Below, piece by piece: positions 856 through 60,403 of a stretch of DNA of 64,000 nucleotides. The notes under the pieces were generated by a model. That model was not told where the DNA came from and searched no databases. It saw only the letters and a program-made list of their open reading frames with translations. Position numbers and translations under genes: made by a program. Source of the DNA: a virus; IMG/VR virus record IMGVR_UViG_2786546475_000019, positions 974 through 64,973 of that record; one strand, written 5' to 3'. How positions within the stretch are numbered: position 1 is the first letter of the stretch; the number at the start of each line of letters is the position of its first letter.

Positions 856-2217
856 ATGTCACAAGAATCTAAACTTACCTCTGTTTTGTCGCTGCATTTC
901 GATTTTGACGCGAAGTCTTTACTTTGCGGCATGAATCCCGGTTCAGATCGATACTTGACGCCAAACCCGGTTCAATCGCTAGTAGATAGCTTATTTGCTG
1001 GTTGGAATAGCCAGGAAAGCTTGAAAGCCATCACTAATGGCAATCTCGCTAAAATCGATCCGCGATTCACTAAAGCGGACGACGTAGCTAGTTTCGCTGC
1101 TAAACAGCGTCAAACTTTCCGTTCTGAATTCAGACCGGGGACAGACTTGTGGGCAGCTCTTTGCGGCAAGTCTGACAAGTTCATCGCCATTGGACCAGCA
1201 CCTGCAAAGGGGCAGCCTGATGAACGTTTAAAGATTCCCGTTGAATCGATCTACGCGGTCCTTAATCTTTGGTGCGGTACCAAAGCGAATGGCATGACCG
1301 TATCGGGCAACAGGCGTATGCTTGCGCTACTGTTTGTTCTGGCCCTTGAATATGCGGAAGCATTCGCGGAAGCATTAGGGGCAGGGAAAACGAACGAAGA
1401 CGCGGAAGCTGTTGCTAAAAAGACAGTGAAAGCTCATCGGATTCCCGTAGTATTCAAATCGTGGGACACGTTCCAAGATTTGACTAGCGAGCAAATTGCG
1501 GACAATGAACGGGTTCACCAGTCCAACTATACGGAATTGGATCAGGTACGTTTGGCCGTTAAGATCAAACGCGAAGACTGGGGACTGTCCAAGCGGGATA
1601 TCGCTCGACAGATTCCGGGTTTGCGGACCGTAGCCAAAAAGACTGGCGAACTACGCATTAACCAGCGTAGGGCGTCCAATGCAACGGATCGTGCCGATCT
1701 TGTCATCTATGCCGATGACGGGCTGGATATGAACGTCATGGACCGGTTGACCACGGACAACGTAGAAAGCTACGTTGAAGGTGGACCGATTCCAGTGAAA
1801 CGGATCGCTTTCGAACACGTTCCCTTCCTCATCGACGCTACCAAAGAGTACAGCAGTACCCACGCTGCTATTCTTAAAGCGGTTTACCCTGATGCTGTTT
1901 TCAGTGAAGGGGAGGCTATTGGCATCGATGCCGATTCTAAAGCTTTGGAACGCTATTTTCGGTATATTATCGAACATAGCGGTTCAGCGAAACAAGCTTT
2001 GACGATCAAGCAATTACGCGATGCGATCACAAAAATTCCGTCGTCCAAAGACGTGGAAGTATCGCTACGCAAGCTGTACGAAGTGATTGCCGCTGGCGAT
2101 CCAAACGCACTAGCGTTACCAGCTTTGAAAGCTTCAGCGTGGGCCACAATTGTGGATCGCGAAGCGGAAGCGGAAGCGGAAGCGGAAGCGGAAGCGGAAG
2201 CGGAATCCGCCAACTAG
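856..2217 (+). CDS. Hypothetical protein, 453 aa, C-terminal (EA)7 repeat
   Basis: Long ORF with an RBS (aaggaatacc) 8 nt upstream. No recognisable motifs. It is isolated between repeat-rich non-coding regions. Confidence 0.55.
   Translation: MSQESKLTSVLSLHFDFDAKSLLCGMNPGSDRYLTPNPVQSLVDSLFAGWNSQESLKAITNGNLAKIDPRFTKADDVASFAAKQRQTFRSEFRPGTDLWAALCGKSDKFIAIGPAPAKGQPDERLKIPVESIYAVLNLWCGTKANGMTVSGNRRMLALLFVLALEYAEAFAEALGAGKTNEDAEAVAKKTVKAHRIPVVFKSWDTFQDLTSEQIADNERVHQSNYTELDQVRLAVKIKREDWGLSKRDIARQIPGLRTVAKKTGELRINQRRASNATDRADLVIYADDGLDMNVMDRLTTDNVESYVEGGPIPVKRIAFEHVPFLIDATKEYSSTHAAILKAVYPDAVFSEGEAIGIDADSKALERYFRYIIEHSGSAKQALTIKQLRDAITKIPSSKDVEVSLRKLYEVIAAGDPNALALPALKASAWATIVDREAEAEAEAEAEAEAESAN
2150..2198 (+). 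repeat. (GAAGCG)x7 hexanucleotide tandem repeat encoding (EA)n at the C-terminus of ORF 856..2217
   Basis: Seen directly. Confidence 0.9.
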
Positions 2218-43693: not shown

Positions 43694-43911
43694 CGTATTT
43701 CAATCTCTCCCATCATAAGAAGTTCTTCTAGCCCAAACACTTCATCTTCCCCACAACTGGTACAGTGATAGTTTCGAGCGTCTGGCTCACAATAATCATC
43801 CGCAGGCTCCTCGCACTTGCGACAGAAACCGTGTCCGCCTTCCATAGACATCTCAGTGTATTCAGTTTCAGTTAATTCAATCATAGCTTTCCTTTCAAAT
43901 GAAGTAGCCAT
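43690..43911 (-). CDS. Small Zn-ribbon protein (CRKCEEP...CTSCGED)
   Basis: ORF of 73 aa. Confidence 0.3.
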   Translation of the reverse strand: MATSFERKAMIELTETEYTEMSMEGGHGFCRKCEEPADDYCEPDARNYHCTSCGEDEVFGLEELLMMGEIEIR

Positions 43912-44770: not shown

Positions 44771-44790
44771 GATAAGCTCCTAGTATTTCC

Positions 44791-45816
44791 TTAAAGTGTG
44801 ACTGTGAATGTTTCCGAAGCCCGTGTGACTGCCGTATATCGCCAACGGACCGGGCTCCAAAGGTCGCATTGTTCATCTACAATATGAACGTGCTCCCACT
44901 CAGAACCTTGTGATTTGTGTGTTGTAATAGCGTAAGCGTGATCAATTGCAAGCAGCCCTTTTGGAAAGGCATCATACAAATCACGCTGGTTCATGGACCG
45001 TCCAATCGAATCCAAGCCTACGTCGCTAATTGTATCATCTTCAAAAGTGACGTTAGCTACCATATCGTCATGCCATTTGTTCACTTTTCGAATGACCTTA
45101 ACCATTCCGTTGTAGAATGGTGGGTCATTTTTCAAAATGATAATTGGCCGCCCTGGAATCAAAGGGTTTGAAGGGTTGTCGTGGAGTTCCCGATTCAAAG
45201 AGTGACGAGTTTTATTAAACCCGCACAAAATGATCTTATCACCGGGCGTGGACCTGTACCATGATACAGGGTCCGTGTCCGCTACGAAACGATCTGAATA
45301 TTTGCCCGACGCTCGAACATACATGGACTCCTGAATGATAGGGTTGTCTGCTGCTTGCCGATGAATCGTGGACAACTCTACATCAAGGTCAAGCATCAAA
45401 TTTGGATTCTTACCGACTGGCTCCAACTGTCCATGATCTCCGGTGAGTATCACTTTCATGTTGTAACTCAGAAGGTCTTCCCAAAGCCGTTGATTCACGG
45501 TGCTTGCTTCGTCAATGTAGAAGTAAGTCCCAAGAATATCTTTCTTTGGCTTCTTGAAGAATCTCATACTCTTTCTATCAAATCGATAGATTGTGCTATG
45601 AATTGTTTGAGCTTTCTTTACTCCTTTCTTACGCAACTGCTCAACGGCCTTACCCATAAAAGCACAAGGGACTCCTCCGGGTTTACGTCGCAATATCTCT
45701 TGGGCAATCGTAGTCTTCCCAGTACCGGCGTACCCGCCAATACGGAAGACTTGCTGACTGGAACTAAGAGCTGTGTTGATTACAGACTCTTGTTCAGGCG
45801 TTAGAATTATCATCAT
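44791..45816 (-). CDS. SF1B helicase, Dda/RecD-like
   Basis: Walker A GYAGTGKTT, Walker B YFYIDEAS, ILTGDHGQLEPV, AITTHKSQGSEW. Confidence 0.65.
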   Translation of the reverse strand: MMIILTPEQESVINTALSSSQQVFRIGGYAGTGKTTIAQEILRRKPGGVPCAFMGKAVEQLRKKGVKKAQTIHSTIYRFDRKSMRFFKKPKKDILGTYFYIDEASTVNQRLWEDLLSYNMKVILTGDHGQLEPVGKNPNLMLDLDVELSTIHRQAADNPIIQESMYVRASGKYSDRFVADTDPVSWYRSTPGDKIILCGFNKTRHSLNRELHDNPSNPLIPGRPIIILKNDPPFYNGMVKVIRKVNKWHDDMVANVTFEDDTISDVGLDSIGRSMNQRDLYDAFPKGLLAIDHAYAITTHKSQGSEWEHVHIVDEQCDLWSPVRWRYTAVTRASETFTVTL

Positions 45817-46369
45817 TGAACCTTTCTAGAAACTCAGGGGCACAGACCGTGGGTCGTGTGTCTTCGAAATCCGTAACACTCAGTGGGAGGCCGAAACCAA
45901 TTGCCCCGTCGAAAGGGTAGTATGCTGCAATGTAACTTTTAAGATAGCCGAACGTCTGTATCGGCTCCGACTTTCCCGCGTATCGATACCCATGTTTCAC
46001 GAAGCAATTGATAACATCAATGGCTTCTTGCGACGTGTTGCACTCGACTTGGAATCCTGACAACCAAACGTTCGCCTTACGTGCACGTCGGAAGTGTTCA
46101 GGTTTAGTCACTGAAAAGATCGGCGGCTCTTTGTCCGTCCACGGCCTCCACTGGTTGTCCAAGATTGAATAATACTCAAGCTCGCCGTCGAGGTACACCG
46201 ACCACGCCTCTTTATACTCAGGTAAGATGGTGCGGTATTCTTGGTCGAGAGCCCAGTTCGGGTTAACAGGAATAAAAGCCCAAGGGCTAGTAGACGTCCT
46301 AGTCCAAACTTCTGCTTCTTGGTTCAGGGCCCATTTGATAATTTCGTCTGCATGTTTGTGTTTCATCAC
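45794..46369 (-). CDS. Hypothetical protein, paralog of 41564..42001
   Basis: Shared N-terminal domain. Confidence 0.4.
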   Translation of the reverse strand: MMKHKHADEIIKWALNQEAEVWTRTSTSPWAFIPVNPNWALDQEYRTILPEYKEAWSVYLDGELEYYSILDNQWRPWTDKEPPIFSVTKPEHFRRARKANVWLSGFQVECNTSQEAIDVINCFVKHGYRYAGKSEPIQTFGYLKSYIAAYYPFDGAIGFGLPLSVTDFEDTRPTVCAPEFLERFNDDNSNA

Positions 46370-46998
46370 TCAACTCCTCCAAATAAATTGTCTTGACACG
46401 TTTGACACAAGCCACTGATTTGATATTCGCGGATACTGGCTTCGTCTTCGAAATTGTCAGCAATGTTCCCACACCCAATGGGGCTTGGCACACATTGAGC
46501 TTGTTTGATACAACGCCTACGGTCCTTGCCCAACTGTTTAGTTAAAGCTGCTTCAATTGCTTCGTCTTTAACGGTAGGCGTATACCGTTTGATAAACTTT
46601 TCGACTTTCTCCAAGTTATCACGCCATTCAAAATTTCCTAAATACCAAAACGTATTTTTAGGGCAATCTTCTGTCCCGTAAAATGCCCACAATCCTTCTA
46701 GTCGCCCGGAACGACATTGATCAATAGCGTTTTCAAAAGCGTTCAAATCATCAAAGTCAAAGTCCAAGAACTTAGCCCTTGACTCACAGTCCCAAATTAC
46801 GGAAGTGGTTAACCGCTTCTCCGCTATTTTTTGGATAGTACAGGTCGCGGCACAGCCTATACAAATGCCTTCTCGTTGAGCACCCCAAGACCCCATATAC
46901 ACTTCAAAGTCCGGGGCTTTATCAAATTCTTTTAGCGAGTCAACCATGACTTGCAACGCGTCGATTGGAGTGGGGACTATTTCTTTGATACTTTTCAT
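46366..46998 (-). CDS. Cys-rich hypothetical protein
   Basis: ORF of 210 aa. Confidence 0.35.
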   Translation of the reverse strand: MKSIKEIVPTPIDALQVMVDSLKEFDKAPDFEVYMGSWGAQREGICIGCAATCTIQKIAEKRLTTSVIWDCESRAKFLDFDFDDLNAFENAIDQCRSGRLEGLWAFYGTEDCPKNTFWYLGNFEWRDNLEKVEKFIKRYTPTVKDEAIEAALTKQLGKDRRRCIKQAQCVPSPIGCGNIADNFEDEASIREYQISGLCQTCQDNLFGGVE

Positions 46999-47606
46999 AA
47001 TGATAATGCCTTAATGATAAGGGACGCTCGGATAGTTTCTGCTTCAATTTGAGCTTTTTTAAGCTCTTTCTCGTAGGTTCGCTTGGTCCGGGACCCTAGC
47101 CCCTGTTCCAAGTCCCAATAACGAGGGGTTACGTACTCCATTACAGACGTGGCAAATTGGCTTTCAGCTTCACACTCTAAAGCAATTTGTGCTTGGTCGC
47201 CTTGAGCCGAGTAGCCTAAGTATAAAAAGTCTTCTTTAGCCGCCCGGAAAGCAGCGACTCGTATGCACATTTTCATCGCATTGATAATATGAGACTGTTC
47301 CATATCCTCAATGTTAATGCTTTTGCCTCCTTTCATAATCCAGGTCGGTTTACGTAAATACTTGGAAGCGTGAGCACTTTTCACTGTGGAGCGTACTCGA
47401 CTGTTCCAAATCTCTAAATACGTCTTTTGAAGGTAACCCGCTTTTCGAAGTTTTTCCTCAAGCTGGCGAAGCTTTTTATCAATGTGACGATGTTTTGTAG
47501 CTCGTCTGGAGTCATCACTATGTTCGTAAGTTACGTCAAAAGTGTTGAGTAACTCTTTGTACTCCTCTAAACTCATGATATCTCCTTTTGGTTGTACCTG
47601 GCCCAT
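46995..47606 (-). CDS. Hypothetical protein
   Basis: ORF of 203 aa. Confidence 0.35.
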   Translation of the reverse strand: MGQVQPKGDIMSLEEYKELLNTFDVTYEHSDDSRRATKHRHIDKKLRQLEEKLRKAGYLQKTYLEIWNSRVRSTVKSAHASKYLRKPTWIMKGGKSINIEDMEQSHIINAMKMCIRVAAFRAAKEDFLYLGYSAQGDQAQIALECEAESQFATSVMEYVTPRYWDLEQGLGSRTKRTYEKELKKAQIEAETIRASLIIKALSL

Positions 47607-47848
47607 ATTTTTTTCATTTTATCAACTGGAACATCTCCAATGAAAAGAAAACGAATGCTGAGAGATAATTGAATCATGTCCCACGAAACTTTCTCTCCAT
47701 CGTCGAACTCAATCATAGGCTCTAAAGACCCATGATCGTTAAGAAAAATACCGACATATGTGGCCCTCGTAACTTTATCAATGTCTCCATATTGATTGAA
47801 CCATGTGAACTTTTTATCACGTACCGCATCCACTTGGTGCGTGGCCAA
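47573..47848 (-). CDS. Hypothetical protein
   Basis: ORF of 91 aa. Confidence 0.3.
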   Translation of the reverse strand: MATHQVDAVRDKKFTWFNQYGDIDKVTRATYVGIFLNDHGSLEPMIEFDDGEKVSWDMIQLSLSIRFLFIGDVPVDKMKKIWARYNQKEIS

Positions 47849-47992
47849 GAACTCGACTTCGGGTACTGTTTTAAGGTTCTTGAAAGGTACACCTGCGTGA
47901 CAAAGGGCTTTCTTCCCGTCAACAATGATAAAATCTCCTGTAAATGGAAGGTTACGAAAAATCCGTGATTTCAGTTATTGCGTATTTTTTCA

Positions 47993-48277
47993 TTACGAGT
48001 CTCCTAAAAAGAATTTATGGCTTATTTTATCATCAAGAATGTTTTCGACTTCTTCCCAAGTTGTAATTCCTTGGTATCCTCGTCCGTCGTACTCAAGAAC
48101 AACGTCTCCAAAGGTTAAGTCCCACGTGAACTCAAGCACGGCCCACACTCCATCTGCGTACTGGCACAGAAAAGAGCCTTGTTGCAAAGGACATTTTCCA
48201 TCAAGGAAAGAAGCGGCTTGCTCTGTAAAATCGGAGTCTTGGTTTTTAACAAAGTCAAGTAATGTATCAAAGTTCAT
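47993..48277 (-). CDS. Hypothetical protein
   Basis: ORF of 94 aa. Confidence 0.3.
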   Translation of the reverse strand: MNFDTLLDFVKNQDSDFTEQAASFLDGKCPLQQGSFLCQYADGVWAVLEFTWDLTFGDVVLEYDGRGYQGITTWEEVENILDDKISHKFFLGDS

Positions 48278-49341: not shown

Positions 49342-49508
49342 TTGTCTCTCCGTACAGGTAGATGGTAATATTGGCCGTGTTCTTCAAACAAACATCTGAT
49401 AAAAATGTTCACTTTTGACATTTCTGTCCACGGCCCTTTAGAGGCCATCCAAATTACAAAAAGTCCGGCCCCCAATATTAAAGCCATTGATAAAGCTTTG
49501 TGTTTCAT
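49338..49508 (-). CDS. Small membrane protein (start refined to MKHKALSMALILG...)
   Basis: Conserved RBS gaaaggaatatcATG. The ORF-track start at 49550 lies inside the upstream element. Confidence 0.35.
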   Translation of the reverse strand: MKHKALSMALILGAGLFVIWMASKGPWTEMSKVNIFIRCLFEEHGQYYHLPVRRDK

Positions 49509-49520
49509 GATATTCCTTTC

Positions 49521-49578
49521 TAAACAAGTAAACAACGGTCCACGCTCCATGATACTTGGAGCGTGGTACGTTGGCTAC
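49521..49578 (-). promoter_or_regulatory. Conserved palindromic element copy A: GTAGCCAACGTACC-hairpin-GGACCGTTGTTTAC (minus-strand sense), immediately 5' of the RBS
   Basis: Four copies share conserved 14-bp arms with variable, self-complementary inner stems. Confidence 0.6.
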
Positions 49579-49586
49579 TCTTACCG

Positions 49587-50147
49587 TTAGGTAGACTCAA
49601 ACGTTACGATATCCGGGTCTTGTAGCCCTCCGCCTAAGTCGGAAGCTTTCAACTCAAATTCGTAATTAACTCCACGGAACCCCGTGAAGTTATCACCGAC
49701 CCAGCCGTCGAAAGTGAACTCAACCCGCACCGTGACAGTAGGAGCGGGAATAGCTACTTCCTCAATGAATACGTCGGTCCAGCCTTGACCGCCAGAACCT
49801 CCATTAAGCGGGTTAGTGTTGTTTCCCCAATTCATAGGAAATTTTATAGTTTCCGTCACGCTCACGGGACCATTTGGGCCTTCTACCACGACAGTGTGGT
49901 CAACCATTTGATAAGTTCTCACGTGAACTGCAAGCCACTCCAAACGATTGTCAACCCACCAAGTTGCAGTTAAGTTAACTTTTGTAACGTCCCCGGCTGA
50001 GACTTCCGTGACTCCCATTGAGGCGGAGCTGTAGTAGTCTCCGGAAGTGCCGTGCACCGGGTTGTTGCCGCCTCCGCCTACTTGACCGTAAGCAGTTGTT
50101 GCTACGAGCAACAGAATAGTAAACAACACAAGTGATAAAATACGCAT
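49587..50147 (-). CDS. Secreted protein (signal peptide MRILSLVLFTILLLVATTAYGQ)
   Basis: ORF of 186 aa. Confidence 0.45.
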   Translation of the reverse strand: MRILSLVLFTILLLVATTAYGQVGGGGNNPVHGTSGDYYSSASMGVTEVSAGDVTKVNLTATWWVDNRLEWLAVHVRTYQMVDHTVVVEGPNGPVSVTETIKFPMNWGNNTNPLNGGSGGQGWTDVFIEEVAIPAPTVTVRVEFTFDGWVGDNFTGFRGVNYEFELKASDLGGGLQDPDIVTFEST

Positions 50148-50189: not shown

Positions 50190-51014
50190 TCATTTAGTAG
50201 GACGACACAATGCTCGTGTCTTCCAGTAGTTGAAGCTACGTTCCAACTCTTTGACGAACGCTTCCGCATCCATCTGAGTATCAGTGCCGCCGTCGCTGCC
50301 GAAGTGGTTGTGCAGCAACGTTTCAGGTTTCATCGGAGCATTCAGGTCTTCTAAGTCCACCCCAGCGTTGACTGAGATGATATTCCACCGCCCGTAGGCT
50401 TGTTCTCCGCTCTCATAGAGCACGTCTCGATGATAAAGGACGACTTCGACGTGGCAGGCGGCGGCCTTATTTACGCCGTCCAAGTATTCATGCCGACGTG
50501 GCGACTCGCCGTCACGTCGTGGCTTATACTCCACGATCAAAGTATCATTGTTCCGAAGCTTACGAATAGGGCAATAAACCCCGTTCGCGTCAATCGGAAC
50601 GATGATAACTCCGTCTCTATAGCCGGGACGCTGCTCGTGAAATCGGGCTTGTACCTGTTCAACGAGCACTTCGTCTGAGAACTTCCAGTGGGAGAACTCA
50701 CTATTGGCTGTCTGCCGACTAACGAAGTCGTGGACCGCTACGTCTGGAGCTGGGTTGCTCCAGTTCTGTTGCGTAACCTGCAACACGGTGGGTTCTCCAT
50801 TAGGGTGGATCGCCGCTTTGTCCCTTGGCTCGTAGTCATAAATGAAGGTATCTCCGTCCGAGGATTGAAGGGCATTACGCCCCGATCCATCTTCTTCTGC
50901 GTCGCCGTAGGGGACGTAGCCGTTTTTAAGAAGTATGATAAATTCGTCGTTACTTAACATTTGTTGGTTGTCAGTTTTCATCTCGCTCTCCTGTTTATTT
51001 AACAAGCTTTCCAT
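50190..51014 (-). CDS. Hypothetical protein
   Basis: ORF of 274 aa. Confidence 0.4.
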   Translation of the reverse strand: MESLLNKQESEMKTDNQQMLSNDEFIILLKNGYVPYGDAEEDGSGRNALQSSDGDTFIYDYEPRDKAAIHPNGEPTVLQVTQQNWSNPAPDVAVHDFVSRQTANSEFSHWKFSDEVLVEQVQARFHEQRPGYRDGVIIVPIDANGVYCPIRKLRNNDTLIVEYKPRRDGESPRRHEYLDGVNKAAACHVEVVLYHRDVLYESGEQAYGRWNIISVNAGVDLEDLNAPMKPETLLHNHFGSDGGTDTQMDAEAFVKELERSFNYWKTRALCRPTK

Positions 51015-51283
51015 TCAGCAATAAGTTTAGCAGCTTCGGGTGAGACTTTCACCCACTGTTTCACTGAAATGTCCTCATGGGTTTCAACAGCTGCCGTGAT
51101 ACGTGTGTTGGTCTTCGGACCATTAGCCGCTAAGCCAAAGAGTCCACCGCACTCAGAACTCCAGTAAAGGACCATTCGAGCGTTTCGCAATTTGATAGGC
51201 TTTCCAGCTTCGGGGTCTTTGTCCGCCATACCGATTATAACGGCTCGTCCGTTTTCCCCGCAACAAACTAGATACATCGACAT
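50999..51283 (-). CDS. Hypothetical protein
   Basis: ORF of 94 aa. Confidence 0.35.
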   Translation of the reverse strand: MSMYLVCCGENGRAVIIGMADKDPEAGKPIKLRNARMVLYWSSECGGLFGLAANGPKTNTRITAAVETHEDISVKQWVKVSPEAAKLIAEWKAC

Positions 51284-51284
51284 T

Positions 51285-51629
51285 TCAGTCTCCTCTTATC
51301 AATTGATAAATTTCTTTGTAAGTATGTACTGGCATATTATACTTGTCCGCTATATCCTGCCAGTTCTCTTCCCACCAGCTAAAAGAATGACACTGACCCC
51401 CAACTTTCAACACTCCAAAGTCTTGGTTGACTTCTACTTTGCGGCCGTGTAAAATTCCGAGTGTTATCAGTTTGCCGTAGCCGTAGCCGTAGCCGTAGCC
51501 GTAGCCGTCGCCGTCGCCGTAGCCGTCGCCGTAGCCGTAGCCGTAGCCGTAGCCGTCGCCGTAGCCGTAGCCGGTCCCGTAGCCGGTCCCGTAGCCGGTC
51601 CCGTAGCCGTCGCCGTGGTTACTTAACAT
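51285..51629 (-). CDS. Gly-Tyr repeat protein: N-terminal (GYG/DGYG)n low-complexity region (~50 aa) plus a ~60-aa C-terminal domain
   Basis: RBS taaggaactatcaATG. Encoded by a (GCCGTA/GCCGTC)n hexanucleotide array at ~51470-51610. Confidence 0.45.
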   Translation of the reverse strand: MLSNHGDGYGTGYGTGYGTGYGYGDGYGYGYGYGDGYGDGDGYGYGYGYGYGKLITLGILHGRKVEVNQDFGVLKVGGQCHSFSWWEENWQDIADKYNMPVHTYKEIYQLIRGD

Positions 51630-51726
51630 TTGATAGTTCCTTATAAATGATCAACTTTGGTCTTTGCTTCACGCGGACCGATGTACGGTTCCAACGTAAA
51701 TAAGTCATTGATATTTTCACATAGTT

Positions 51727-51933
51727 TCATCTTGCTCTCCTGTTTGCTCGCTTAGCGAGTCGTTGAGTTTCAGGATCGTCCGGAAGTATCACTAGCGATC
51801 CTGCGGTCTTATGGCCGTACACCATGTACCCTGTAGCACGCTCCGTGGTGCTACAGGTTGCACACGTCATTGTGTGCGGAAGTACCTCTAAGCGTTCACT
51901 ATCAATTTGTGTTTTGCAGTTTATGCAGTTCAC
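51727..51933 (-). CDS. TraR/DksA-like C4 zinc-finger protein
   Basis: CINC...15 aa...CATC in a 68-aa protein, typical of the phage TraR-like family. Confidence 0.4.
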   Translation of the reverse strand: MNCINCKTQIDSERLEVLPHTMTCATCSTTERATGYMVYGHKTAGSLVILPDDPETQRLAKRANRRAR

Positions 51934-52188: not shown

Positions 52189-52518
52189 TCAGATTGAGTA
52201 AGTGCGAGATTGAAGTGCTTGTTTCGGTTCACGGCCCTTGTACTTAGTTCCAGGCTGCTCGAACCACGTTCCACGTGAGATGTGAATATCCAAGTCAAGA
52301 TATTCATACTTCGGGACGTTATAATAGTCTGCTAAGTCGTAAACGTCCAGATTATCAAGATCTGGAATTGGTCGCAACGTAATATGCGACAGTACGTAAG
52401 CCGCCACATTACGTTGCTTACGCTTGAGCGTTGGGTTAGCCGCTTGGACCGTGGCCCACAGCCGCTCAAAAGACTCTAGAGTTGGACACAACTCAATGAT
52501 AGATACTCTCTTAGACAT
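52189..52518 (-). CDS. Hypothetical protein (start refined to MSKRVSIIEL...)
   Basis: Avoids the 185-bp overlap with the upstream gene. gggag RBS. Confidence 0.3.
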   Translation of the reverse strand: MSKRVSIIELCPTLESFERLWATVQAANPTLKRKQRNVAAYVLSHITLRPIPDLDNLDVYDLADYYNVPKYEYLDLDIHISRGTWFEQPGTKYKGREPKQALQSRTYSI

Positions 52519-53062
52519 TGGCCACGGCTCCCATCTTAAGAACCTTGGCACACATTGCCAACAATTTGGCGTGGTGTCGGGGAGCTTCAACATGGTTCTC
52601 GAACCATGAATCATCCGCCCCACATGGTAGCTTGACTCCCCCGGCTCGGAAGTATTGATAATTGTGCCGTGCGACACGGGCATTGTCCCGTGCATTGAGC
52701 AAGCACTCCCGTCTCGTGGCCCGTGGCGGACGAAGATGGTCGAATTTCATCAAAAGAACGCTATCAATGGAAGATTTCCCGCATCCTGCGTCTCGCAGCG
52801 TGCGAATATCATCCGCTGCGGCTTTGCGAGCGGTTCGAACCCACTCAATATGGGCCAGAGCTTCCCGATAAAGGTCGATCTGTTCGCTGATCCAGTAGCC
52901 AAGGGTGGCCTCAAAATCATGGAGAGTTACTTGATAGTCCAGAGTTCCGACCCAACGTAGCGGGGTGCCTGGAATGTAAGCTTTGTAGTCGTGGCCGGAA
53001 GCCTCGACCTCGACAGGCAAATCGTTGACGTAGAACATTCCAAGAGGTTGCATAGCTTTCAT
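52511..53062 (-). CDS. Hypothetical protein (start refined to MKAMQPL...)
   Basis: Conserved start context. The ORF-track extension to 53152 runs through element copy B. Confidence 0.4.
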   Translation of the reverse strand: MKAMQPLGMFYVNDLPVEVEASGHDYKAYIPGTPLRWVGTLDYQVTLHDFEATLGYWISEQIDLYREALAHIEWVRTARKAAADDIRTLRDAGCGKSSIDSVLLMKFDHLRPPRATRRECLLNARDNARVARHNYQYFRAGGVKLPCGADDSWFENHVEAPRHHAKLLAMCAKVLKMGAVANV

Positions 53063-53087
53063 GATAATCCTTTCAAGTGAGAAAAAA

Positions 53088-53134
53088 GTAAACAACGGTC
53101 CCTGCACCTCACGAGTGCATGGTACGTTGGCTAC
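53088..53134 (-). promoter_or_regulatory. Conserved palindromic element copy B
   Basis: gtaaacaacggtcc ... ggtacgttggctac on the + strand. Confidence 0.6.
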
Positions 53135-53144
53135 TGGCTTGCTA

Positions 53145-53570
53145 CTAAACAATTGCCCTCTGATTCAGTTCAGGAACAACAGTGTGAGCTATCAATATCC
53201 CAAGCTTGACGCCCCAGTTGACGAGTCTTTGATAAGCTTCGTCCAGCTCCGCCAACGTCTTATATTTAAGGGTCAGCCCGCTGATTAGCAAAGGCTCACC
53301 GTCGCGAGTCGCTCGCAACACGCATTTCCCGTCCCCGGTTGTGATAGAAAAGCTGCATTTATCAGCTAGTCGTAGCTGCGGTATGCCAACCATGTTCAAT
53401 TTTCGTCGAACGTATTGGCGAGCCGCCTGGGAGTCCGTAGCATACGTGACCTTGAGGTGCTCAATAATTTGTTGAGTGTCGGACGTGCCATACAGCTCCT
53501 GAAGTCGCTGATCGGTCTCAAACATCAGAAGTTGCTCGATGAAATTCCAAGTCGTGTGATTGTTAATCAT
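53145..53570 (-). CDS. Hypothetical protein
   Basis: ORF of 141 aa with the conserved start context. Confidence 0.4.
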   Translation of the reverse strand: MINNHTTWNFIEQLLMFETDQRLQELYGTSDTQQIIEHLKVTYATDSQAARQYVRRKLNMVGIPQLRLADKCSFSITTGDGKCVLRATRDGEPLLISGLTLKYKTLAELDEAYQRLVNWGVKLGILIAHTVVPELNQRAIV

Positions 53571-53591
53571 GATAATCCTTTCAAGAAATTA

Positions 53592-53638
53592 GTAAACAAC
53601 GGTCCATGCACCTCATGGGTGCACGGTACGTCAGCTAC
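53592..53638 (-). promoter_or_regulatory. Conserved palindromic element copy C
   Basis: gtaaacaacggtcc ... ggtacgtcagctac. Confidence 0.6.
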
Positions 53639-53645
53639 CAACTAC

Positions 53646-54014
53646 TTATACTTCAGTCCGCCACTTAAGCCAGAATTCCAACATAGCGTTAAAGTTGTGG
53701 TAAGTCCCGTCGTCTTCGACGTTATGATAATCTTCAAGGTCCAACGGGGCGAACTCCTCAAGTGTCTCACGCAACGGTCTGACGGTGTGTGAACCATTCG
53801 TTGAGTAAGAATATGAAACTTCCGTTAACGCCTCACATCGCACAATAAAGGTTTCGAAAGTTTTCTCAAGCCGAGATTGGAGCCTGCGATCTTTGATTTC
53901 TCGAACTATCAGTACCGGGGTTCCTGGTCCTTTGACCAATAACCCTTTCTTGATTTCGATTCGGTTCTCTTTGACTTCTCGACAGATTTTGAACAACATA
54001 GACTTAGCTTTCAT
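53646..54014 (-). CDS. Hypothetical protein
   Basis: ORF of 122 aa with the conserved start context. Confidence 0.4.
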   Translation of the reverse strand: MKAKSMLFKICREVKENRIEIKKGLLVKGPGTPVLIVREIKDRRLQSRLEKTFETFIVRCEALTEVSYSYSTNGSHTVRPLRETLEEFAPLDLEDYHNVEDDGTYHNFNAMLEFWLKWRTEV

Positions 54015-54038
54015 GATAATCCTTTCAAGTGAGAAACA

Positions 54039-54086
54039 GTAAACAACGGTCCGGGCTACCCGTGGGCAGCACGGTACGTTGGCTAT
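54039..54086 (-). promoter_or_regulatory. Conserved palindromic element copy D
   Basis: gtaaacaacggtcc ... ggtacgttggctat. Confidence 0.6.
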
Positions 54087-54142
54087 TGATAGACCTAGGC
54101 CCGAAGGCCCAGGATTAAATCCAGATTGTCAAAGATCAAAAT

Positions 54143-54285
54143 TATCATTTGTGTCCCGCCACTGGCGGAAATGATATGATAGCTTACAGACCTACGGTCA
54201 ATCTATTCTATACTTAATATCGGCAATTGGGAAGTAAGAAAATAGATTATTTTTGAAAATAATCAAAACTTTATCATATCATTTT
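54143..54285. promoter_or_regulatory. Operator-like region. It has the palindrome TATCATTT-gtgtcccgccactggcgg-AAATGATA. It also has the inverted pair AAATGATATGATA (54169-81) and TATCATATCATTT (54273-85)
   Basis: Seen directly. The same architecture recurs at 59145-59359. Confidence 0.55.
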
Positions 54286-54627
54286 TTACACTGTTTCCTT
54301 CTCAATGATAATCCCATTGATTTCGAATTGGTTCGTGACCATATGCCAATGCATATCATTATACAGGAACCGATAGCAAGTTCTCCGATACCTGAACTCG
54401 TGACTAGGCCCATGGGCCGTGTACTCGGGTGTAGGCCATTTATCAATGTACCCTGTTAGAGACACGGACCTTTCATCTGGAAAAAAGAATTCAGGCTCTT
54501 GGACCTTGATCAATTCATCGTTGGACAAGTTACGGAGCCAAAGCCTATCTTCATCAAGATGATAATTTGCCTGCCACTCAAACCAAGCTTCAAACTCAGT
54601 CATGAAACAGTATGGGTTTCTGTTCAT
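54286..54627 (-). CDS. Hypothetical protein (start refined to MNRNPYCF...)
   Basis: gggagttaacATG RBS. Avoids the 175-bp overlap with the Dam gene. Confidence 0.35.
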   Translation of the reverse strand: MNRNPYCFMTEFEAWFEWQANYHLDEDRLWLRNLSNDELIKVQEPEFFFPDERSVSLTGYIDKWPTPEYTAHGPSHEFRYRRTCYRFLYNDMHWHMVTNQFEINGIIIEKETV

Positions 54628-54628
54628 G

Positions 54629-55396
54629 TTAACTCCCAAGAATATAAAGTGCTTCAACCACGGAAGATCGAATCTCGCCAGCAGATTGATAGATTCGATA
54701 CTCGTACTTTTCAGTCCATTCCTGAGCTTCCAAGTATGTGTTCTTGTAGTGATTGATAACAACAGTGCCTTGTCGGTCCTTGGCCCACGAAACAATTTCC
54801 TCAAGCGAGATCAGATCGAACCCTTGTGTCTCATCGTAAGGCGGGTCCAAGTAGAATAACGCATCGACACTATCATATGAAGCTAGCTTCTTCCAGTCCC
54901 AATTCTCGATTTGCCACTTGCTAATACGAGCACGAAGCAGGGGCCAGATTCTCATTTTACTGGCTACATTCGGCTGCTTCTGTGAGAAGTTGCGAGCGTA
55001 GTTAAGCCTCCGCCCCAAGTAAGACATAACCGCTGTCACGTACCACTTTGCTGCACGCTTCACGGGGTTACTTGATAGCTGCCAAGTCTTTTTGCAATGC
55101 AACCATTCTTCTTCGGAAGAAGGATGATACTTTTTAAGTTCTTCGACAAGCTCCTCGTAGTGGTTACGGAACGCTCGATAGAAGTCAATGATCCCGGAGT
55201 CTTTATCATTAAACACCATGTACGGGAACTGAGCCACGTTCAATGATACCATTCCTGTCCCGCCAAACACGTCAATAAATTTCTTGTGCGTGTCTCGCAT
55301 GTGGTTCAGAATAGGAAGAATATGTTGCAAGGCCCGTGCCTTAGACCCTATCATTCGAAACGGAGCTTCACGTTTCTTGAAGTCTTTATCAGTCAT
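54629..55396 (-). CDS. DNA N6-adenine methyltransferase, Dam family
   Basis: DVFGGTGMVSLNV (motif I, FxGxG) and YLDPPY (motif IV DPPY). Confidence 0.7.
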   Translation of the reverse strand: MTDKDFKKREAPFRMIGSKARALQHILPILNHMRDTHKKFIDVFGGTGMVSLNVAQFPYMVFNDKDSGIIDFYRAFRNHYEELVEELKKYHPSSEEEWLHCKKTWQLSSNPVKRAAKWYVTAVMSYLGRRLNYARNFSQKQPNVASKMRIWPLLRARISKWQIENWDWKKLASYDSVDALFYLDPPYDETQGFDLISLEEIVSWAKDRQGTVVINHYKNTYLEAQEWTEKYEYRIYQSAGEIRSSVVEALYILGS

Positions 55397-55581
55397 CCTA
55401 GTATCTCCAAGAGAACATTTAATTGGTCAGCACACGTCCGATACCCTTGTCGCTCGGCTTCGCGACGGTTTTCAAACTCCTGACCTTCTGGAGACCCATC
55501 AACTATTTCAGGTCGAGCCCCTTTCTCTCGCCACTTCTCAATCAACGCTTCTAAAACTTCTCGCTTGATACTTTTAGTCAT
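55393..55581 (-). CDS. Small hypothetical protein (ATG start at 55581 with a gggagg RBS; the ORF track uses GTG at 55641)
   Basis: RBS spacing. Confidence 0.3.
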   Translation of the reverse strand: MTKSIKREVLEALIEKWREKGARPEIVDGSPEGQEFENRREAERQGYRTCADQLNVLLEILG

Positions 55582-55976
55582 ACGACTTTCCTCCCGTGTG
55601 TTAATGTAATTGTTTCGCCAGTTTGGGTAGTCTCTGTCCACGTCTTAGACCACGGACCTCGAATTGATAGCATCCACCCTTTGCCCTCGACCTTATGGTT
55701 CAGCTCGTGAGGTGTGTACTTTACTCGGAACTTTTTATACTCCCGTGGCCAGCCGTAAATACAGTCAAAGTCGTCCGGTTTCCGAACAAACTCCGTGGCC
55801 CATCCCATTAGGAGCATGGTCCATGCATTGAACGCATGGGTGTGGAAGTTCCGTTCAGCAGCACCGCCCTTCACTCGAAGCAGAACGATTGAGAACAAAC
55901 ATTTGATTTCAATGATAAAGAACCCTGTTACGTTGGACTTTGGTCCACCATCTTTACGCCATGATAATAACCTCAT
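55578..55976 (-). CDS. Hypothetical protein
   Basis: ORF of 132 aa, atga-coupled to the downstream gene. Confidence 0.35.
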   Translation of the reverse strand: MRLLSWRKDGGPKSNVTGFFIIEIKCLFSIVLLRVKGGAAERNFHTHAFNAWTMLLMGWATEFVRKPDDFDCIYGWPREYKKFRVKYTPHELNHKVEGKGWMLSIRGPWSKTWTETTQTGETITLTHGRKVV

Positions 55977-55979
55977 AGT

Positions 55980-58586
55980 TTAAGTTGCCCTTTCTCCCTT
56001 AATCGTTTCCCTTTTAACACCGTCTGGAGTTTCAACAAAACGAAACCCGTTGTCTTTCGGAGCTTCATACGAGAAGCGAACATTGTAGATACATGTCTTT
56101 TGCATCTCGTCAATAGCTATCAAATACATTTCCGCTAGGTTCTGTTCGAACTTCTTACGATTTGCTCGCCCCCCGTCGTCCATGTAGTTCTTATACAGAA
56201 GTTGAAGCTCCACTTTTGATCCAGGCTGTTCTTGGAGCACGGACCGTGCAAAGAGTTCAACGTCGGTTCGGTTCAAGTCCGCAGCTTGCTCTTTATCAAC
56301 CGTATCCACAACAGGAACATTCAAACGCCCCTGAGTTGGCGGTATTTGATACGCTAACAAGGCATACAGAAACGCGGGAGCTTGAGCTTCCAGTTGTTCC
56401 AAAAGAAGTTTCTTTGGAATAACTTTATCTGGCTTCTTGGGTACATTGATAACCGTGATTCGGGTGTCTCCGGGAAGTATCGGACAGAACTCACGATTGT
56501 TCGCGGTGTGAATCCAATGCGACGTATTAGGTATCATGTAAGCGGGCTTGCCTTTTGTGTTGACTGAGATTACTTTGGACGTAACATAGTCTTTAACTTT
56601 TTGATAAACAGTGGAGTCCGAGTTCAAGTTAATCTCCTCAAGAACGCAAAGCACCGCCCCAGCAAGTTCACTGTTGAACGAGCTGACTAACGCGTTCTCC
56701 GCTCGAACGACACCGGGACTAAACAACAATGATAATGCTTCATGCAAAATCGACTTCCCGGTGTCTTGCTCCGTGGAATACAAAAACAGAAACGGCAAAG
56801 GTTCAAACGGTTGTTGTATCAATGACGCGACCCACGCAAACAGATAGTCGTGTCCTTTGCAAATACCGTTCTCCGTGAACCAATTATCCTTACGAACGTA
56901 TTGATCTAGAGAGTGTCCGATATGGTCCAGAATCTTCATCCAAAGATCAAAGTTTCCTTCTTCTGGAGTGTGTCGCAGTTGAGCAGCTCCCCGATTCCAT
57001 AAACGATTACCCGGATATTCAGACTCAAAGGGTCGTGAAACAATGTTCCAGGGCTTCATGATAGCTTCACCCTGCATCTGCTGAATCTCTTTAGTGTTCA
57101 TTCCTTGGCTTTTGAGACCGAGCGTCAGGTTGGCGATCGGTTCTTCGATCCAACCGTTATCATGCGTCTCAATAGCCCAACCGGCGTCCACGCTACCCAT
57201 AATCATGTGACGAATCTGCGTATTCGTGTCCACGTCATACGGGCTACCAGTACGAGACTCTTTTATCACTTTCAACCAACGTGTTCCTTTTGCGATCCAA
57301 CCTTCAATGCCGCCTGGGTCGCCTTTGATTTTCGGAATCTCAATTTTAAGCTTGTTTTCCTTTAGCTGAGTGACAGTTGCTTGACGAGCTATCAATACTT
57401 CGTCAATGGCTTGCATTTCATGTTGCTGGAAAAGCTTAGTCAATTTATGAGCAGGAAGCACCATTCCTTTTTTATCATCTTCTAACGCTCCTGAATCTTT
57501 CACCAAGGTCCAAAGCGGTGGAACATAATTCAAATACGTGCGAGTCCATCCGTTCTTCGTGGTCCACGATTCATGTTCCTTGGCTTCGTTGCCATATCGG
57601 TACACGGCCCATGCTCCGTGTGGAAGCGGATACGCGAAGCAGTTCTGTTTGTGGAGATCAGTTCCGTCACTGATAGTCTGGAAATCGCCTTTAAACCCGA
57701 GTTCTTTGGAAGCTTGCTCCAATAGTTTAGTGTGCGTGATAAACATCTTTCCTTCCGCGTTCCAGTAACCAAACGCGGAGTTGTTATTCATCCACTCAAG
57801 CAAACGCTCATGTTCTTCTTCAAGCGTCACGGACTGTTTGTGCTTGATAATTTCTTCCATACGGTCATCAGCATAAGAGTGTTTCTTCTTACCGCTCACG
57901 ACGCCAATATGATCTCGCCATCCCAGCGGCTCTTTGATATGGGCCTCAGCTTCCTTAATAATTTGAAAGCCGTTCTCTCCCGTTTTCCGTGACCATACCC
58001 ACATATTACAACCGAAAACATCAACTGCAAGGTCAAAGTCGAAACCAGTCTCAAGACATAGTTGACTCAGAACGCCGCGAGCAAGAGCAGCGTGTTCTGC
58101 CCGACTTGTCGTAGTGATAAGGTCTTCAAAGAAAACATATAAGTGGTAGCCAGCTCCACTTTTAGATCGTTGTACTCGCACCCAAGGTACGTTACACGCT
58201 CGTTGTTGAATATCAAGTAGATCAGTCTGCGTTAGCTTGTGCTTGTGCCGAGCTGAGTGGCCCACGATACCGTCAAAGTCGAAAGCAACATATCGCGAGA
58301 TGCATTGCCCAAAGTCCCACCCCGATAAACCAACCATTGAGGCGTGATCTTCCAGGCTGAACTTGATATTTCCTTCATCGTATTTGCCATCAATTCGAAA
58401 ATTCTTCCAGACTTGAACACCGTCAGTCCACTCCCGGTAGGTCCGACCTTTGTATTCCTTATCAACAGGCTCGCCGCCATCAGCGGCTACGTTTACTTGA
58501 ACTTCCATTGTAGGCGAGTATAACGCCGCCATGTGGGGTTCTGCGTTATCACGCAAGAATCGTTCTAAAGCTTCACTTTTACGCAT
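55980..58586 (-). CDS. Bifunctional primase-helicase: AEP/PrimPol-type primase N-terminal domain plus a D5/P4-alpha-like SF3 helicase C-terminal domain
   Basis: VAFDFDG ... SGAGYHLYVFF (AEP motifs). LYSTEQDTGKS Walker A. ATG at 58586 with a gagg RBS preferred over the TTG at 58592. Confidence 0.75.
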   Translation of the reverse strand: MRKSEALERFLRDNAEPHMAALYSPTMEVQVNVAADGGEPVDKEYKGRTYREWTDGVQVWKNFRIDGKYDEGNIKFSLEDHASMVGLSGWDFGQCISRYVAFDFDGIVGHSARHKHKLTQTDLLDIQQRACNVPWVRVQRSKSGAGYHLYVFFEDLITTTSRAEHAALARGVLSQLCLETGFDFDLAVDVFGCNMWVWSRKTGENGFQIIKEAEAHIKEPLGWRDHIGVVSGKKKHSYADDRMEEIIKHKQSVTLEEEHERLLEWMNNNSAFGYWNAEGKMFITHTKLLEQASKELGFKGDFQTISDGTDLHKQNCFAYPLPHGAWAVYRYGNEAKEHESWTTKNGWTRTYLNYVPPLWTLVKDSGALEDDKKGMVLPAHKLTKLFQQHEMQAIDEVLIARQATVTQLKENKLKIEIPKIKGDPGGIEGWIAKGTRWLKVIKESRTGSPYDVDTNTQIRHMIMGSVDAGWAIETHDNGWIEEPIANLTLGLKSQGMNTKEIQQMQGEAIMKPWNIVSRPFESEYPGNRLWNRGAAQLRHTPEEGNFDLWMKILDHIGHSLDQYVRKDNWFTENGICKGHDYLFAWVASLIQQPFEPLPFLFLYSTEQDTGKSILHEALSLLFSPGVVRAENALVSSFNSELAGAVLCVLEEINLNSDSTVYQKVKDYVTSKVISVNTKGKPAYMIPNTSHWIHTANNREFCPILPGDTRITVINVPKKPDKVIPKKLLLEQLEAQAPAFLYALLAYQIPPTQGRLNVPVVDTVDKEQAADLNRTDVELFARSVLQEQPGSKVELQLLYKNYMDDGGRANRKKFEQNLAEMYLIAIDEMQKTCIYNVRFSYEAPKDNGFRFVETPDGVKRETIKGERAT

Positions 58587-59017
58587 TAACAAACCTCATT
58601 AACAAATTGATATCATTTTCGATAACAGATTCGAGAAAGCCCGAAACAACCAGACTTCACCCTATAGCTACGAGTGGCGGGATATCGGATTGCCCCACAA
58701 AATGAAAATAAATCGAGTTAATGGAAATTGATACGAAACTTTAATGACGTTTCCAGTGCAGCGTTATCATTATTCTCTCACGTACGCGAAGCCATTAACG
58801 TTTTTGATACTCAAACCTTTAATTTAAGCTTCTACTTCTTATGGGTACGAGGTGAAAGTAAAATATAGTAGTAGTGTAAATATTATAAGGATTTCAGCCG
58901 CTCAGGCGAGCTTCTGATAAGAAAACGTTAATGAGCCAAATTTTACGTTAAATTGGTATGTTTCGACGGGAATTGATACCGTCTCACTGCTCTCCTCCCG
59001 AACCTTGCATCTTGGCT

Positions 59018-59359: not shown

Positions 59360-60403
59360 GTGGAGAAGTCCAACATGGCAGAAGAAACTCAAGCTACCGA
59401 AACTATCATTTCAGAAGGATTGACTCAAGAGCAGTTCGAATCCGTGGGTAGCGACATTCAGGCGATTTCTATCAATGAGATCACCGTCCCTGAAGTTAAG
59501 CTTCGTGGCGTGAACACCGAAGGGGAAGAATACTTGGAACTCAAGGATTCTATCAAATCGCAAGGACTGTTGCAGAACATTACTGTACGTCCCGTCGAAA
59601 TCGCTGGCAAGCAAGGCTACGAACTTATCACTGGGCTCCAGCGATATACTGCTTGCAAGGAACTCGGACATGAGACTATCGACGCTCGTGTGAAAGAAAT
59701 GTCCGAGCAAGAAGCTTGGTTGTGGATGATCCACGAAAACACTCAACGTGTTACGCAAAAAGCGTCAGATATCACCAAGCTCTTGAAGCGTCTGATCGCC
59801 AAAGATCCAACGATGTCTATTCCACGACTCGCGAAGCTTTTGTCGAAGTCCGTGCCCCAAGTACAGAACTATCTGGCACTTGATAAACTGACCGACGAGG
59901 CAAAGGAATTGGTCGATGATGAAACCATCGGTTTGACCAACGCAGTTGCTCTCGCCAAGCTCCCACCTGAGGAGCAGGAAGACTTGCTTGCTGACGCGTC
60001 AACAATGACCGTTGCTGAATTTGTTCCACTTGTAAACGAACGAAAAGAAAAGGTTGATCAAGCCAATCGTGAAGCTCGTGAACAGGAAAAGAACACGTTT
60101 TCTCCGAAACCAAAAGCTCGCAAGAAAGACGATCTCGTCACCGAGCTTGGAATTATCATGGGCACGGAGACTGGCACTTCGCTTCTTATGGAGTGCTTGA
60201 ACGGTCAGGATGTTGATACTTCCAACCAGAATGTCAAGGCAGTTATCACTCAGACAATGGAGTGGGTCCTGAACCTTGATCCAGCGTCCGTCGACGCTCA
60301 ACGAGCGAAATGGGAAGACGCCAAAAAGAAGCGGGAAGAACGAGAAAAAGCGAAAGCTGCCGCTCGTGCCGAACGTGAAAAGGCGAAAGCCCTGGAAATC
60401 TAA
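59360..60403 (+). CDS. ParB-like N-terminal domain protein with a highly charged KE-rich C-terminal tail
   Basis: YELITGLQRYTACKELG matches the ParB GxxRxxA box. RBS ggagaag. Confidence 0.55.
   Translation: MEKSNMAEETQATETIISEGLTQEQFESVGSDIQAISINEITVPEVKLRGVNTEGEEYLELKDSIKSQGLLQNITVRPVEIAGKQGYELITGLQRYTACKELGHETIDARVKEMSEQEAWLWMIHENTQRVTQKASDITKLLKRLIAKDPTMSIPRLAKLLSKSVPQVQNYLALDKLTDEAKELVDDETIGLTNAVALAKLPPEEQEDLLADASTMTVAEFVPLVNERKEKVDQANREAREQEKNTFSPKPKARKKDDLVTELGIIMGTETGTSLLMECLNGQDVDTSNQNVKAVITQTMEWVLNLDPASVDAQRAKWEDAKKKREEREKAKAAARAEREKAKALEI

Follow-up and report, generated by a model that had tools for sequence, protein, structure and literature searches.

A phage protein family with a Gly-Tyr repeat tail of variable length, encoded next to DUF6948

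The window analysed here comprises 64,000 nucleotides of a tailed-phage genome (positions 974 to 64,973 of IMG/VR virus record IMGVR_UViG_2786546475_000019; all positions below are counted from the first letter of the window unless a contig is named). Its minus strand carries a small gene, here called the GY gene, in which a hexamer array encodes an N-terminal tail of alternating Gly and, mostly, Tyr residues ahead of a folded C-terminal domain. The array was found to change length in frame between near-identical phage genomes, the composition of the tail is maintained by selection on the protein, and the gene is paired with one encoding a DUF6948 protein.

The GY gene and its protein family

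The gene and its parts are arranged as follows.

51285..51629, minus strand: GY gene, encoding the Gly-Tyr-tailed protein of 114 amino acids (aa), stop codon included; an ATG-start open reading frame (ORF) with homologues of the same architecture
51474..51617, minus strand: hexamer array, residues 5 to 52, (X-Gly)24, delimited with Tandem Repeats Finder, the codon table and length polymorphism
51288..51473, minus strand: C-terminal folded domain (C-domain), residues 53 to 114, predicted as four beta-strands followed by two helices
51637..51642, minus strand: Shine-Dalgarno-like AAGGAA, 7 nt 5' of the GY ATG and the same in all four alleles compared below

Tandem Repeats Finder reported the array at 51474..51616 (143 bp; period 6, 23.8 copies, 81% matches, consensus GCCGTA), and it is the top-scoring tandem array of the 64-kb window (score of 188, versus 117 for the runner-up). 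The translated protein is MLSNHGDGYGTGYGTGYGTGYGYGDGYGYGYGYGDGYGDGDGYGYGYGYGYG-KLITLGILHGRKVEVNQDFGVLKVGGQCHSFSWWEENWQDIADKYNMPVHTYKEIYQLIRGD, with GGQCHSFSWWEENW at residues 77 to 90. The 24 X-Gly units of its tail comprise 15 Tyr, 5 Asp, 3 Thr and 1 His unit, written as TACGGC (YG), GACGGC (DG) and ACCGGC (TG, with GGG before it); the first X is the His, encoded by CAC. Gly accounts for 51% of the tail, Tyr for 32% and Asp for 11%, and Gln, Asn and Ser are absent. There are 15 [G/S]Y[G/S] triplets in 48 residues, and pure GY runs occur at residues 25 to 33 (GYGYGYGYG) and 42 to 52 (GYGYGYGYGYG). The protein has a net charge of about -6 and an isoelectric point (pI) of 4.9, and it lacks a signal peptide. 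A plus-strand ORF at 51461..51646 (SRSR...) is a by-product of the hexamer repeat.

Relatives were sought by an exhaustive HMMER search with residues 53 to 114, two profile iterations, and then scans of IMG/VR and JGI contigs. The initial search returned two small, distant homologues, P0006 and P0008, with 37 to 45% identity over the matched stretch, both of which start with G-Y-D/S repeats. The profile iterations added P0009 to P0022, giving a family of 17 clusters that the window ORF matches with an E value of 4e-23 against the family hidden Markov model (HMM), and the contig scans added further copies, so that the C-domain was found in about 20 metagenomic lineages. As homologues with the same architecture turned up in both the HMMER and the profile searches, the ORF at 51285..51629 is a genuine gene. 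Of the full-length members, only P0014 and P0022 lack an aromatic-Gly N-terminal tail. The sequence-only reading of this locus, made earlier, had named loss of the repeat in relatives as grounds for giving it up; even distant relatives keep the repeat. Its description of a coding gene with a Gly-Tyr low-complexity N terminus and a small folded C-domain also held.

The family core reads VGCxxH[TS]xxHWREHWREIAxxxxVxVxxxEV. The window copy is the most divergent of the family, and its version of the core is VGGQCHSFSWWEENWQDIAD / GGQCHSFSWWEENWQDIAD / VGGQCHSFSWWEENWQDIADKYNMPV. Positions G77, W86, E88, W90 and A94 are invariant across the family, and H81 and I93 are nearly so. The conserved-looking Cys/His/Trp pattern noted earlier was thus borne out for the Trp residues, together with G77, E88 and A94, and nearly so for H81. 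However, Cys80 of the window protein is a gain that is not conserved in the family, and no metal ligand set is conserved. In canonical members, a tight C-x2-H-x3-H-x3-H cluster (GCxxHTxxHWREHW) extends from the last strand into the first helix. Its third position varies (H/Y/D/E/W), and only H81 of the cluster is near-invariant. In the window copy, three of the four cluster positions are taken by Gly, Trp and Asn, the Gly standing in for the usual Cys at position 78. Judging from its sequence, the canonical cluster could bind metal; a reading of the domain as a zinc finger or zinc-binding mini-domain was rejected because the ligand set is not conserved.

In the AlphaFold2 (AF2) model, residues 1 to 52 have predicted local distance difference test (pLDDT) values below 50, versus 70 to 81 for residues 53 to 114. 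The tail is therefore predicted to be disordered, and the C-domain is predicted to adopt a beta4-alpha2 fold without detectable relatives. No curated relatives of the family were found in Pfam, PHROG, NCBIfam, PADLOC, PDB or BFVD. The window protein gave only sub-threshold low-complexity matches in the curated libraries, canonical members gave none, and a PDB sequence-profile search for the family returned no match. No source gave the family a name beyond "hypothetical protein", and a literature search found no description of a phage GY-repeat protein. The earlier expectation that such proteins are rare in phages is consistent with a tblastn search in which the GY protein, the canonical C-domain and DUF6948 had no match among 50,697 isolated-phage records. 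Scanning IMG/VR and JGI contigs with the window's own C-domain gave pattern matches of which none was confirmed, as the window copy is too divergent; alignment led by the canonical members worked. No convincing prophage copy of the family was found in GTDB genomes, and no host is assigned for this reason. The family is so far undescribed and consists of small, acidic, cytoplasmic, two-module phage proteins.

Other classes of repeat protein were considered and set aside. A ribosomally synthesized and post-translationally modified peptide precursor or a secreted Gly-rich bacteriocin does not fit a protein that lacks a leader, a signal peptide and a nearby modifying enzyme, and whose repeat is N-terminal to a conserved folded domain. 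An RTX or beta-roll Ca-binding repeat was likewise rejected, since the period here is 2, 4 or 6 residues and not a nonapeptide. Separately, positions 3250 to 3567 (approximately) of L019, a metagenome-assembled genome of Oscillospiraceae (Firmicutes), encode a short WREHWREI-type C-domain fragment (E value of 3e-10) after (V/A)YGNAQV-like heptads; outside the GY family, the C-domain may therefore pair with repeats of other types.

Array length and tail composition

Among 5.8 billion proteins, the only close homologues of the non-repeat domain were three cluster members of 92, 94 and 96 aa. Together with the window they represent four alleles of the window phage, with 13, 14, 15 and 24 X-Gly units (24 in the window). 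The window array differs from those of the other three (L001, L002 and L003) by 54, 60 or 66 nt and also in the internal order of units. Apart from the array, the DNA alignment showed a single base difference among the four alleles, over a stretch that starts 70 nt upstream of the gene and ends 50 nt downstream.

51325, minus strand: sole substitution outside the array among the four alleles, giving His103 in the window and Arg in the Tara alleles

The only other indel over the 20 kb compared was of 3 nt; a further 3-nt gap corresponds to a run of N in the scaffold. In a second lineage, L008/L009/L015 and L014/L016 have 100% identical flanks and differ by 114 nt (19 units) in the array. Both of these alleles were found in two or more independent samples, evidence against assembly collapse. 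Two more lineages are variable (L029 versus L030; L022/L023 versus L024 versus L025), with identical or near-identical C-domains and different arrays; flank identity in the four variable lineages is 99.6 to 100%. The DNA-level length differences in the two lineages that were aligned (54, 60, 66 and 114 nt) are all multiples of 6, and arrays across the family range from 6 to 34 units with the ORF kept. Tail length is thus reset by in-frame expansion and contraction of the array. The sequence-only reading had anticipated that hexamer copy number would vary without frameshifting, and the four alleles bear it out; variation of the same kind was seen in three further lineages.

The array might instead act as a nucleic acid, in the manner of lambda O-type origin iterons, a structured RNA or a recombination hotspot, with the peptide incidental, or the length differences might be assembly artefacts. 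The location in a replication module, the rank of the array as the strongest tandem repeat of the window and the origin of the relatives in short-read assemblies are compatible with these ideas. However, folding is unremarkable (RNA z = -0.95; the DNA folds worse than shuffled sequences, z = +4.4), the hexamer differs by lineage (GGT, GGG or GGC codons; S or D units) with the peptide pattern kept, and it is a conserved protein domain in the same frame that defines the family. As for artefacts, identical long and short alleles were each obtained from independent samples, and the alleles differ in internal unit order, which goes beyond collapse. We therefore regard both versions as very improbable.

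Codon usage within the window array is uniform: Gly is encoded by GGC in 21 of 24 codons and Tyr by TAC in 15 of 15. Outside this array, Gly is found in four codons and Tyr is mostly TAT. Such uniformity is a signature of recent slippage or homogenisation. The homogenised Gly codon depends on the lineage (GGC in the window, GGT in L004, GGG in L012, mixed in L007), and in L007 the DNA repeat has degenerated with the X-Gly pattern kept. An X-Gly reading, with X mostly Y, F, D or S, is common to all lineages examined despite the different codons.

Across 220 units in 14 arrays, X was Tyr in 97 (44%), Asp in 43 (20%) and Ser in 28 (13%), followed by Phe (12), Thr (10), His (8), Asn (6), Leu (5), Cys (4), Pro (3), Ala (2), Ile (1) and Lys (1). 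Arg, Glu and Gln did not occur (0 of 220), and the Lys, at an array edge, was the only basic X beyond His. Every amino acid that a single-nucleotide change in TAC can yield, six in all, is found as X. Asp and Ser, which arise by transversion, are far more frequent than His and Cys, which arise by transition, a bias that indicates selection for spacers that are acidic or small and polar. All proteins of the family are acidic (pI of 4.5 to 6.4).

The sole Tyr-free array, made of DG, SG and AG units in L034, is out of frame with its C-domain. At 1173-1464 of that contig, the start codon overlaps the DUF6948 stop and the frame reads MAGALMHGDGDGSGAGDGDGDGDGSGAGDGD, and an intact C-domain ORF lies at 1294..1464 in the shifted frame. 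The L034 gene appears to be a decayed copy; its frameshift could reflect a real pseudogene, a sequencing error or programmed frameshifting.

The tail could alternatively be a neutral, slippage-prone linker or entropic spacer, in which case all function would lie in the C-domain and in-frame slippage would be harmless. The two repeat-less members, the tolerance of 6 to 34 units without loss of the ORF, the codon homogeneity pointing to recent turnover at the DNA level and the lack of tail structure in the AF2 model are what such a linker would predict. Against it, aromatic X-Gly units are kept, with different codons, in more than 10 divergent lineages whose C-domains share 27 to 50% identity, including L007 with its degenerated DNA repeat. 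Tail composition is tightly constrained, lacking basic residues and with Asp and Ser far above His and Cys against mutational expectation. Furthermore, the only Tyr-free array belongs to a frameshifted copy, and adjacency to DUF6948 (see below) was seen with repeat-bearing members only, the comparison being with two repeat-less lineages that have incomplete flanks. We consider a purely neutral linker rather unlikely. These sequence patterns show selection on the protein, which maintains tail composition as the DNA array is rebuilt.

The same composition bears on whether the GY protein is a glycine-rich RNA-binding-like factor, with a tail that, like those of FUS or plant glycine-rich proteins, binds RNA or promotes granules of RNA and protein. 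The density of [G/S]Y[G/S] triplets in the window tail and weak low-complexity similarity to Gly/Tyr-rich families would suit such a role. However, a Pfam scan of 19 members found no RRM, CSD, KH or other RNA-binding domain, and faint HTH_23 matches were obtained in only 2 of the 19 (E value of about 0.005). Lacking Arg, the tail has no RGG motif. The protein is acidic, as is the putative second helix of its C-domain (e.g., SEEDVEKIL), which sets this helix apart from nucleic-acid recognition helices. The RNA binding suggested earlier is therefore unlikely given a window tail free of both Arg and Lys and a family of uniformly acidic proteins, and we give an RNA-binding factor little credence.

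The DUF6948 cassette and its genomic setting

Directly downstream of the GY gene lies a second small gene.

50999..51283, minus strand: DUF6948 protein gene, 94 aa; Pfam PF22253 with an E value of 2.5e-11, above the curated cut-off, and custom HMM with an E value of 9e-48

In the window, the DUF6948 ATG follows the GY TGA by 1 nt, and its GAGGAG ribosome-binding site (about 51290..51295) lies inside the last GY codons. Wherever the flanks of a repeat-bearing lineage could be read, a DUF6948 gene adjoins the GY gene on the same strand, usually with an overlap (7 of 7 lineages among those first examined): in L004, L007, L008/L009/L014/L015/L016, L012, L013, L018 and L022 to L024, and further in L026, L027, L029/L030, L031, L032 and L034. 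Members below the Pfam threshold were confirmed as DUF6948 by the custom HMM, with E values from 1e-28 to 1e-48. In the other lineages DUF6948 is upstream, with its end overlapping or abutting the GY start (in L026 by 4 nt, ATGA), and the order in the window is reversed. No DUF6948 was found in the available flank of the repeat-less P0014 and P0022 (n = 2), whose downstream sides are cut off.

Some phages also carry duplicates of the pair or of the GY gene. L026 (1-1460) has the order DUF6948>GY>DUF6948>GY>GY, L022 (2400-3180) has GY>DUF6948>GY, and L031 (35-1080) and L013/L025 (L013 2-816) have DUF6948>GY>GY; L006 carries at least three tandem GY genes. Tandem GY paralogues were observed to have quite different tails, for example F/L/S-rich versus H/N/T-rich.

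DUF6948 had no relatives in PHROG, NCBIfam, PADLOC or PDB, and a literature search found no paper naming it; no function or structure is on record. A single-sequence AF2 model of the protein reached a pLDDT of 40 and was discarded. Adjacency to the GY gene is the first functional association for DUF6948. Neighbouring genes encode Pol III alpha, RNase T-like exonucleases and SSB in L007, and PD-(D/E)XK and AAA_24 proteins in L008, and the GY gene sits in replication/recombination modules.

The window has a plus-strand structural block that includes a 1199-aa tape-measure protein (PhageMin_Tail). Its long minus-strand block of small genes also holds a DUF5906 primase-helicase, a Dam-type methylase, an SF1 helicase and a DHH/DHHA1 protein. 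No tRNAs were found in the window. The same phage species is represented by a 71-kb Tara Oceans scaffold, a 16.8-kb Tara contig and a 773-bp contig, and the window shares about 99.6% identity with these relatives over 20 kb, with long zero-mismatch stretches. No close relatives of the window phage were found among the 50,697 isolated-phage records, nor did megablast with 5 kb around the GY gene match any of them. As its relatives are Tara contigs and none is among isolated phages, the phage is marine and known from metagenomes only.

Substitutions relative to the Tara scaffold L002 (20 kb) all fall into a few patches (47986-48050, 50432-50883, 51750-51869 and 52225-52398), with zero mismatches in 41282-47985 and 52399-61626. 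The 27 single-nucleotide polymorphisms (SNPs) of the patch at 50432-50883 are mostly spaced 3 nt apart and fall in the N-terminal half of a DUF3228 gene (50190-51014, minus strand); this gene lies directly downstream of DUF6948 and is outside the conserved cassette in other lineages. Another SNP patch is inside a DksA/TraR-type zinc-finger ORF just upstream of the GY gene. By their distribution, the patches flanking the GY/DUF6948 pair look like mosaic recombination.

With this setting in mind, the GY protein may be an anti-defence or host-takeover effector. The C-domain, with DUF6948, would hit a host protein, the acidic aromatic tail would serve as a decoy, mimic or sponge, and an arms race would drive array length and duplication. 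A small acidic protein encoded in an early/replication block, among many small genes without an assigned function, speaks for such an effector, as do very fast length evolution in four lineages, tandem duplication of the GY gene and of the cassette, a patchy distribution with no copies found in isolated phages or GTDB genomes, and SNP/recombination patches flanking the gene in the window lineage. However, neither a PADLOC defence model nor any other curated family was matched, the strong conservation of the C-domain (HWREHWREIA) is atypical of anti-defence proteins, which tend to evolve fast, and no target can be named. An effector is a possible, if somewhat doubtful, explanation.

Other observations concern the wider genome. 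A CsrA-family protein of 128 aa is encoded at 44384-44770 (minus strand), as annotated on co-linear Tara contigs. Four copies of a conserved intergenic element, each about 75 nt long, lie on the minus strand (at about 49490-49590, 53050-53150, 53554-53654 and 54001-54101), and the copies at 53090 and 49530 bracket the block holding the GY gene. It consists, in order, of TAGCCAACGTACC, a hairpin, an invariant GGACCGTTGTTTAC, a T-rich stretch and GAAAGGATTATC-ATG, the last being the ribosome-binding site and start of the next gene. The hairpin stem varies between copies in an apparently compensatory manner. The element may be a phage-specific promoter, terminator or processing site. A promoter/terminator scan returned nothing decisive. 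A second perfect in-frame hexamer array, (GAAGCG)7.5, is located at 2161-2205, at the 3' end of an ORF at 856..2217, and by arithmetic from the ORF start would encode (Glu-Ala)n. The repeat-rich intergenic region at 58600-59360 separates the divergent genes for the primase-helicase (55980..58592, minus strand) and a ParB-like protein (59360..60403, plus strand). It contains a 14-mer in three copies at 59017-59058 and other repeats at 58600-58634, 59174-59195 and 59245-59276, and is a candidate origin, parS site or divergent promoter region.

Possible function of the Gly-Tyr tail

The [G/S]Y[G/S] motif of the FUS low-complexity domain was reportedly described by Kato et al. 2012. Like FUS-family low-complexity domains, the GY tail is predicted to be disordered and is Tyr-based, with repeated G-Y-G and with Gly, Ser and Asp between the aromatics. 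In contrast to FUS, it has 48 residues rather than about 200, is net acidic, lacks Gln and Asn, and is attached to a tiny novel domain instead of RRM/RGG modules. It is also encoded by a near-perfect hexamer array whose length differs between near-identical phage genomes. Nor is it rich in polar uncharged Q, N and S residues, as prion-like domains are. Whether prion-like domains condense, and into what material state, is tuned by the valence and clustering of their aromatics (PMC8638251); that the GY tail would phase-separate, as put forward earlier, is an analogy.

Another parallel is the synthetic, prion-inspired heptapeptide GYGYGYG, which self-assembles into amyloid-like fibrils (PMC8163036). 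The window tail has the same binary Gly-Tyr pattern as this peptide, from the Ventura/Sodupe laboratories, in its 9- and 11-residue runs. However, the peptide is a designed 7-mer studied in vitro, whereas in the GY protein Asp and Thr units break up the runs, which are attached to a folded domain. Sub-threshold Pfam matches of the GY protein were confined to the repeat (SGP, Keratin_2_head, KRTAP and TrAA12). Sulfur globule, trematode eggshell and oocyst-wall proteins and keratin heads resemble it in Gly/Tyr-rich composition only; those proteins are secreted or structural and often cross-linked, whereas the GY protein is tiny and lacks a signal peptide.

At the DNA level, the array resembles coding variable-number tandem repeats (VNTRs) and simple-sequence contingency loci of bacteria and phages in being a short intragenic array with a copy number that differs among near-identical genomes. 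Unlike on/off contingency loci, slippage of the 6-nt unit changes tail length, with the out-of-frame array of L034 as the exception. Unlike lambda O-type iterons, the repeat unit is not conserved at the DNA level among GY relatives. The GY family and the DUF6948 cassette are new, and resemble FUS-type domains and in-frame coding VNTRs in kind.

The explanation that we tentatively prefer, while rating it short of probable, is a two-module protein consisting of a folded anchor and a self-associating tail, with valence tuned by array length. The C-domain (about 60 aa) would anchor the protein by binding the DUF6948 product, a replication/recombination component or both, and the GY and DUF6948 genes would be translationally coupled. 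The tail would act as a multivalent self-associating element with Tyr and Phe as stickers and Gly, Asp and Ser as spacers, the Asp, Ser and Thr units being solubilising, and its assemblies could be gel-, condensate- or amyloid-like. In-frame slippage or unequal recombination of the hexamer array would often reset the number of stickers, and this number would in turn set the assembly threshold or material state. Self-association is proposed because GYGYGYG forms fibrils and because aromatic number and clustering set condensate behaviour.

Several points weigh against this proposal. The alleles other than that of the window are metagenome assemblies, which are prone to mis-assemble arrays. Asp residues in the tail would oppose aggregation. 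With 32% Tyr and 51% Gly, the tail also lies well beyond the compositions of the prion-like domains that have been studied, and the analogies may therefore not transfer. P0014 and P0022 demonstrate that the C-domain can exist without a tail, and arms-race (anti-defence) genes just as typically show fast length change and duplication. Self-association, physical interaction with DUF6948 and biological role are, moreover, points that we only infer.

A further step, which we consider rather improbable, would take the DUF6948 and GY-tail cassette as a phage-encoded, evolvable self-assembly module. Its Tyr-Gly tail would build a scaffold inside the infected cell, be it a condensate, a gel or amyloid-like, for example around the replication/recombination machinery. 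DUF6948 would be a partner, chaperone or nucleator, and hexamer slippage would serve as a rheostat that resets sticker valence over population time-scales. The only phage precedent found for the mechanism proposed above is Gp27 of SPO1, a modular phage transcription factor reported to drive liquid-liquid phase separation, with condensates that organise a phage process (PMC13401047); phase separation in the service of a phage was shown only recently, with this protein. The GY protein has no detectable nucleic-acid-binding domain, and no likeness to Gp27 in sequence or architecture is expected. The same 2026 paper states that phage use of low-complexity phase-separating proteins "has remained unclear" (PMC13401047).

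In this context the GY family would offer an unusually clean test case for phage low-complexity proteins. It combines a near-pure Gly-Tyr tail of 12 to 70 residues, one small folded domain and one conserved partner with a natural allelic series of tail lengths on identical backgrounds. If the scaffolding module exists, a bacterial virus would possess in it a natural and minimal phase-separation system that can be tuned genetically, and if the tail self-assembles, simple-sequence slippage would be linked directly to the tuning of a biophysical property. Even without self-assembly, the locus defines a new protein family in which selection at the protein level keeps a repeat that is continually rebuilt in the DNA.

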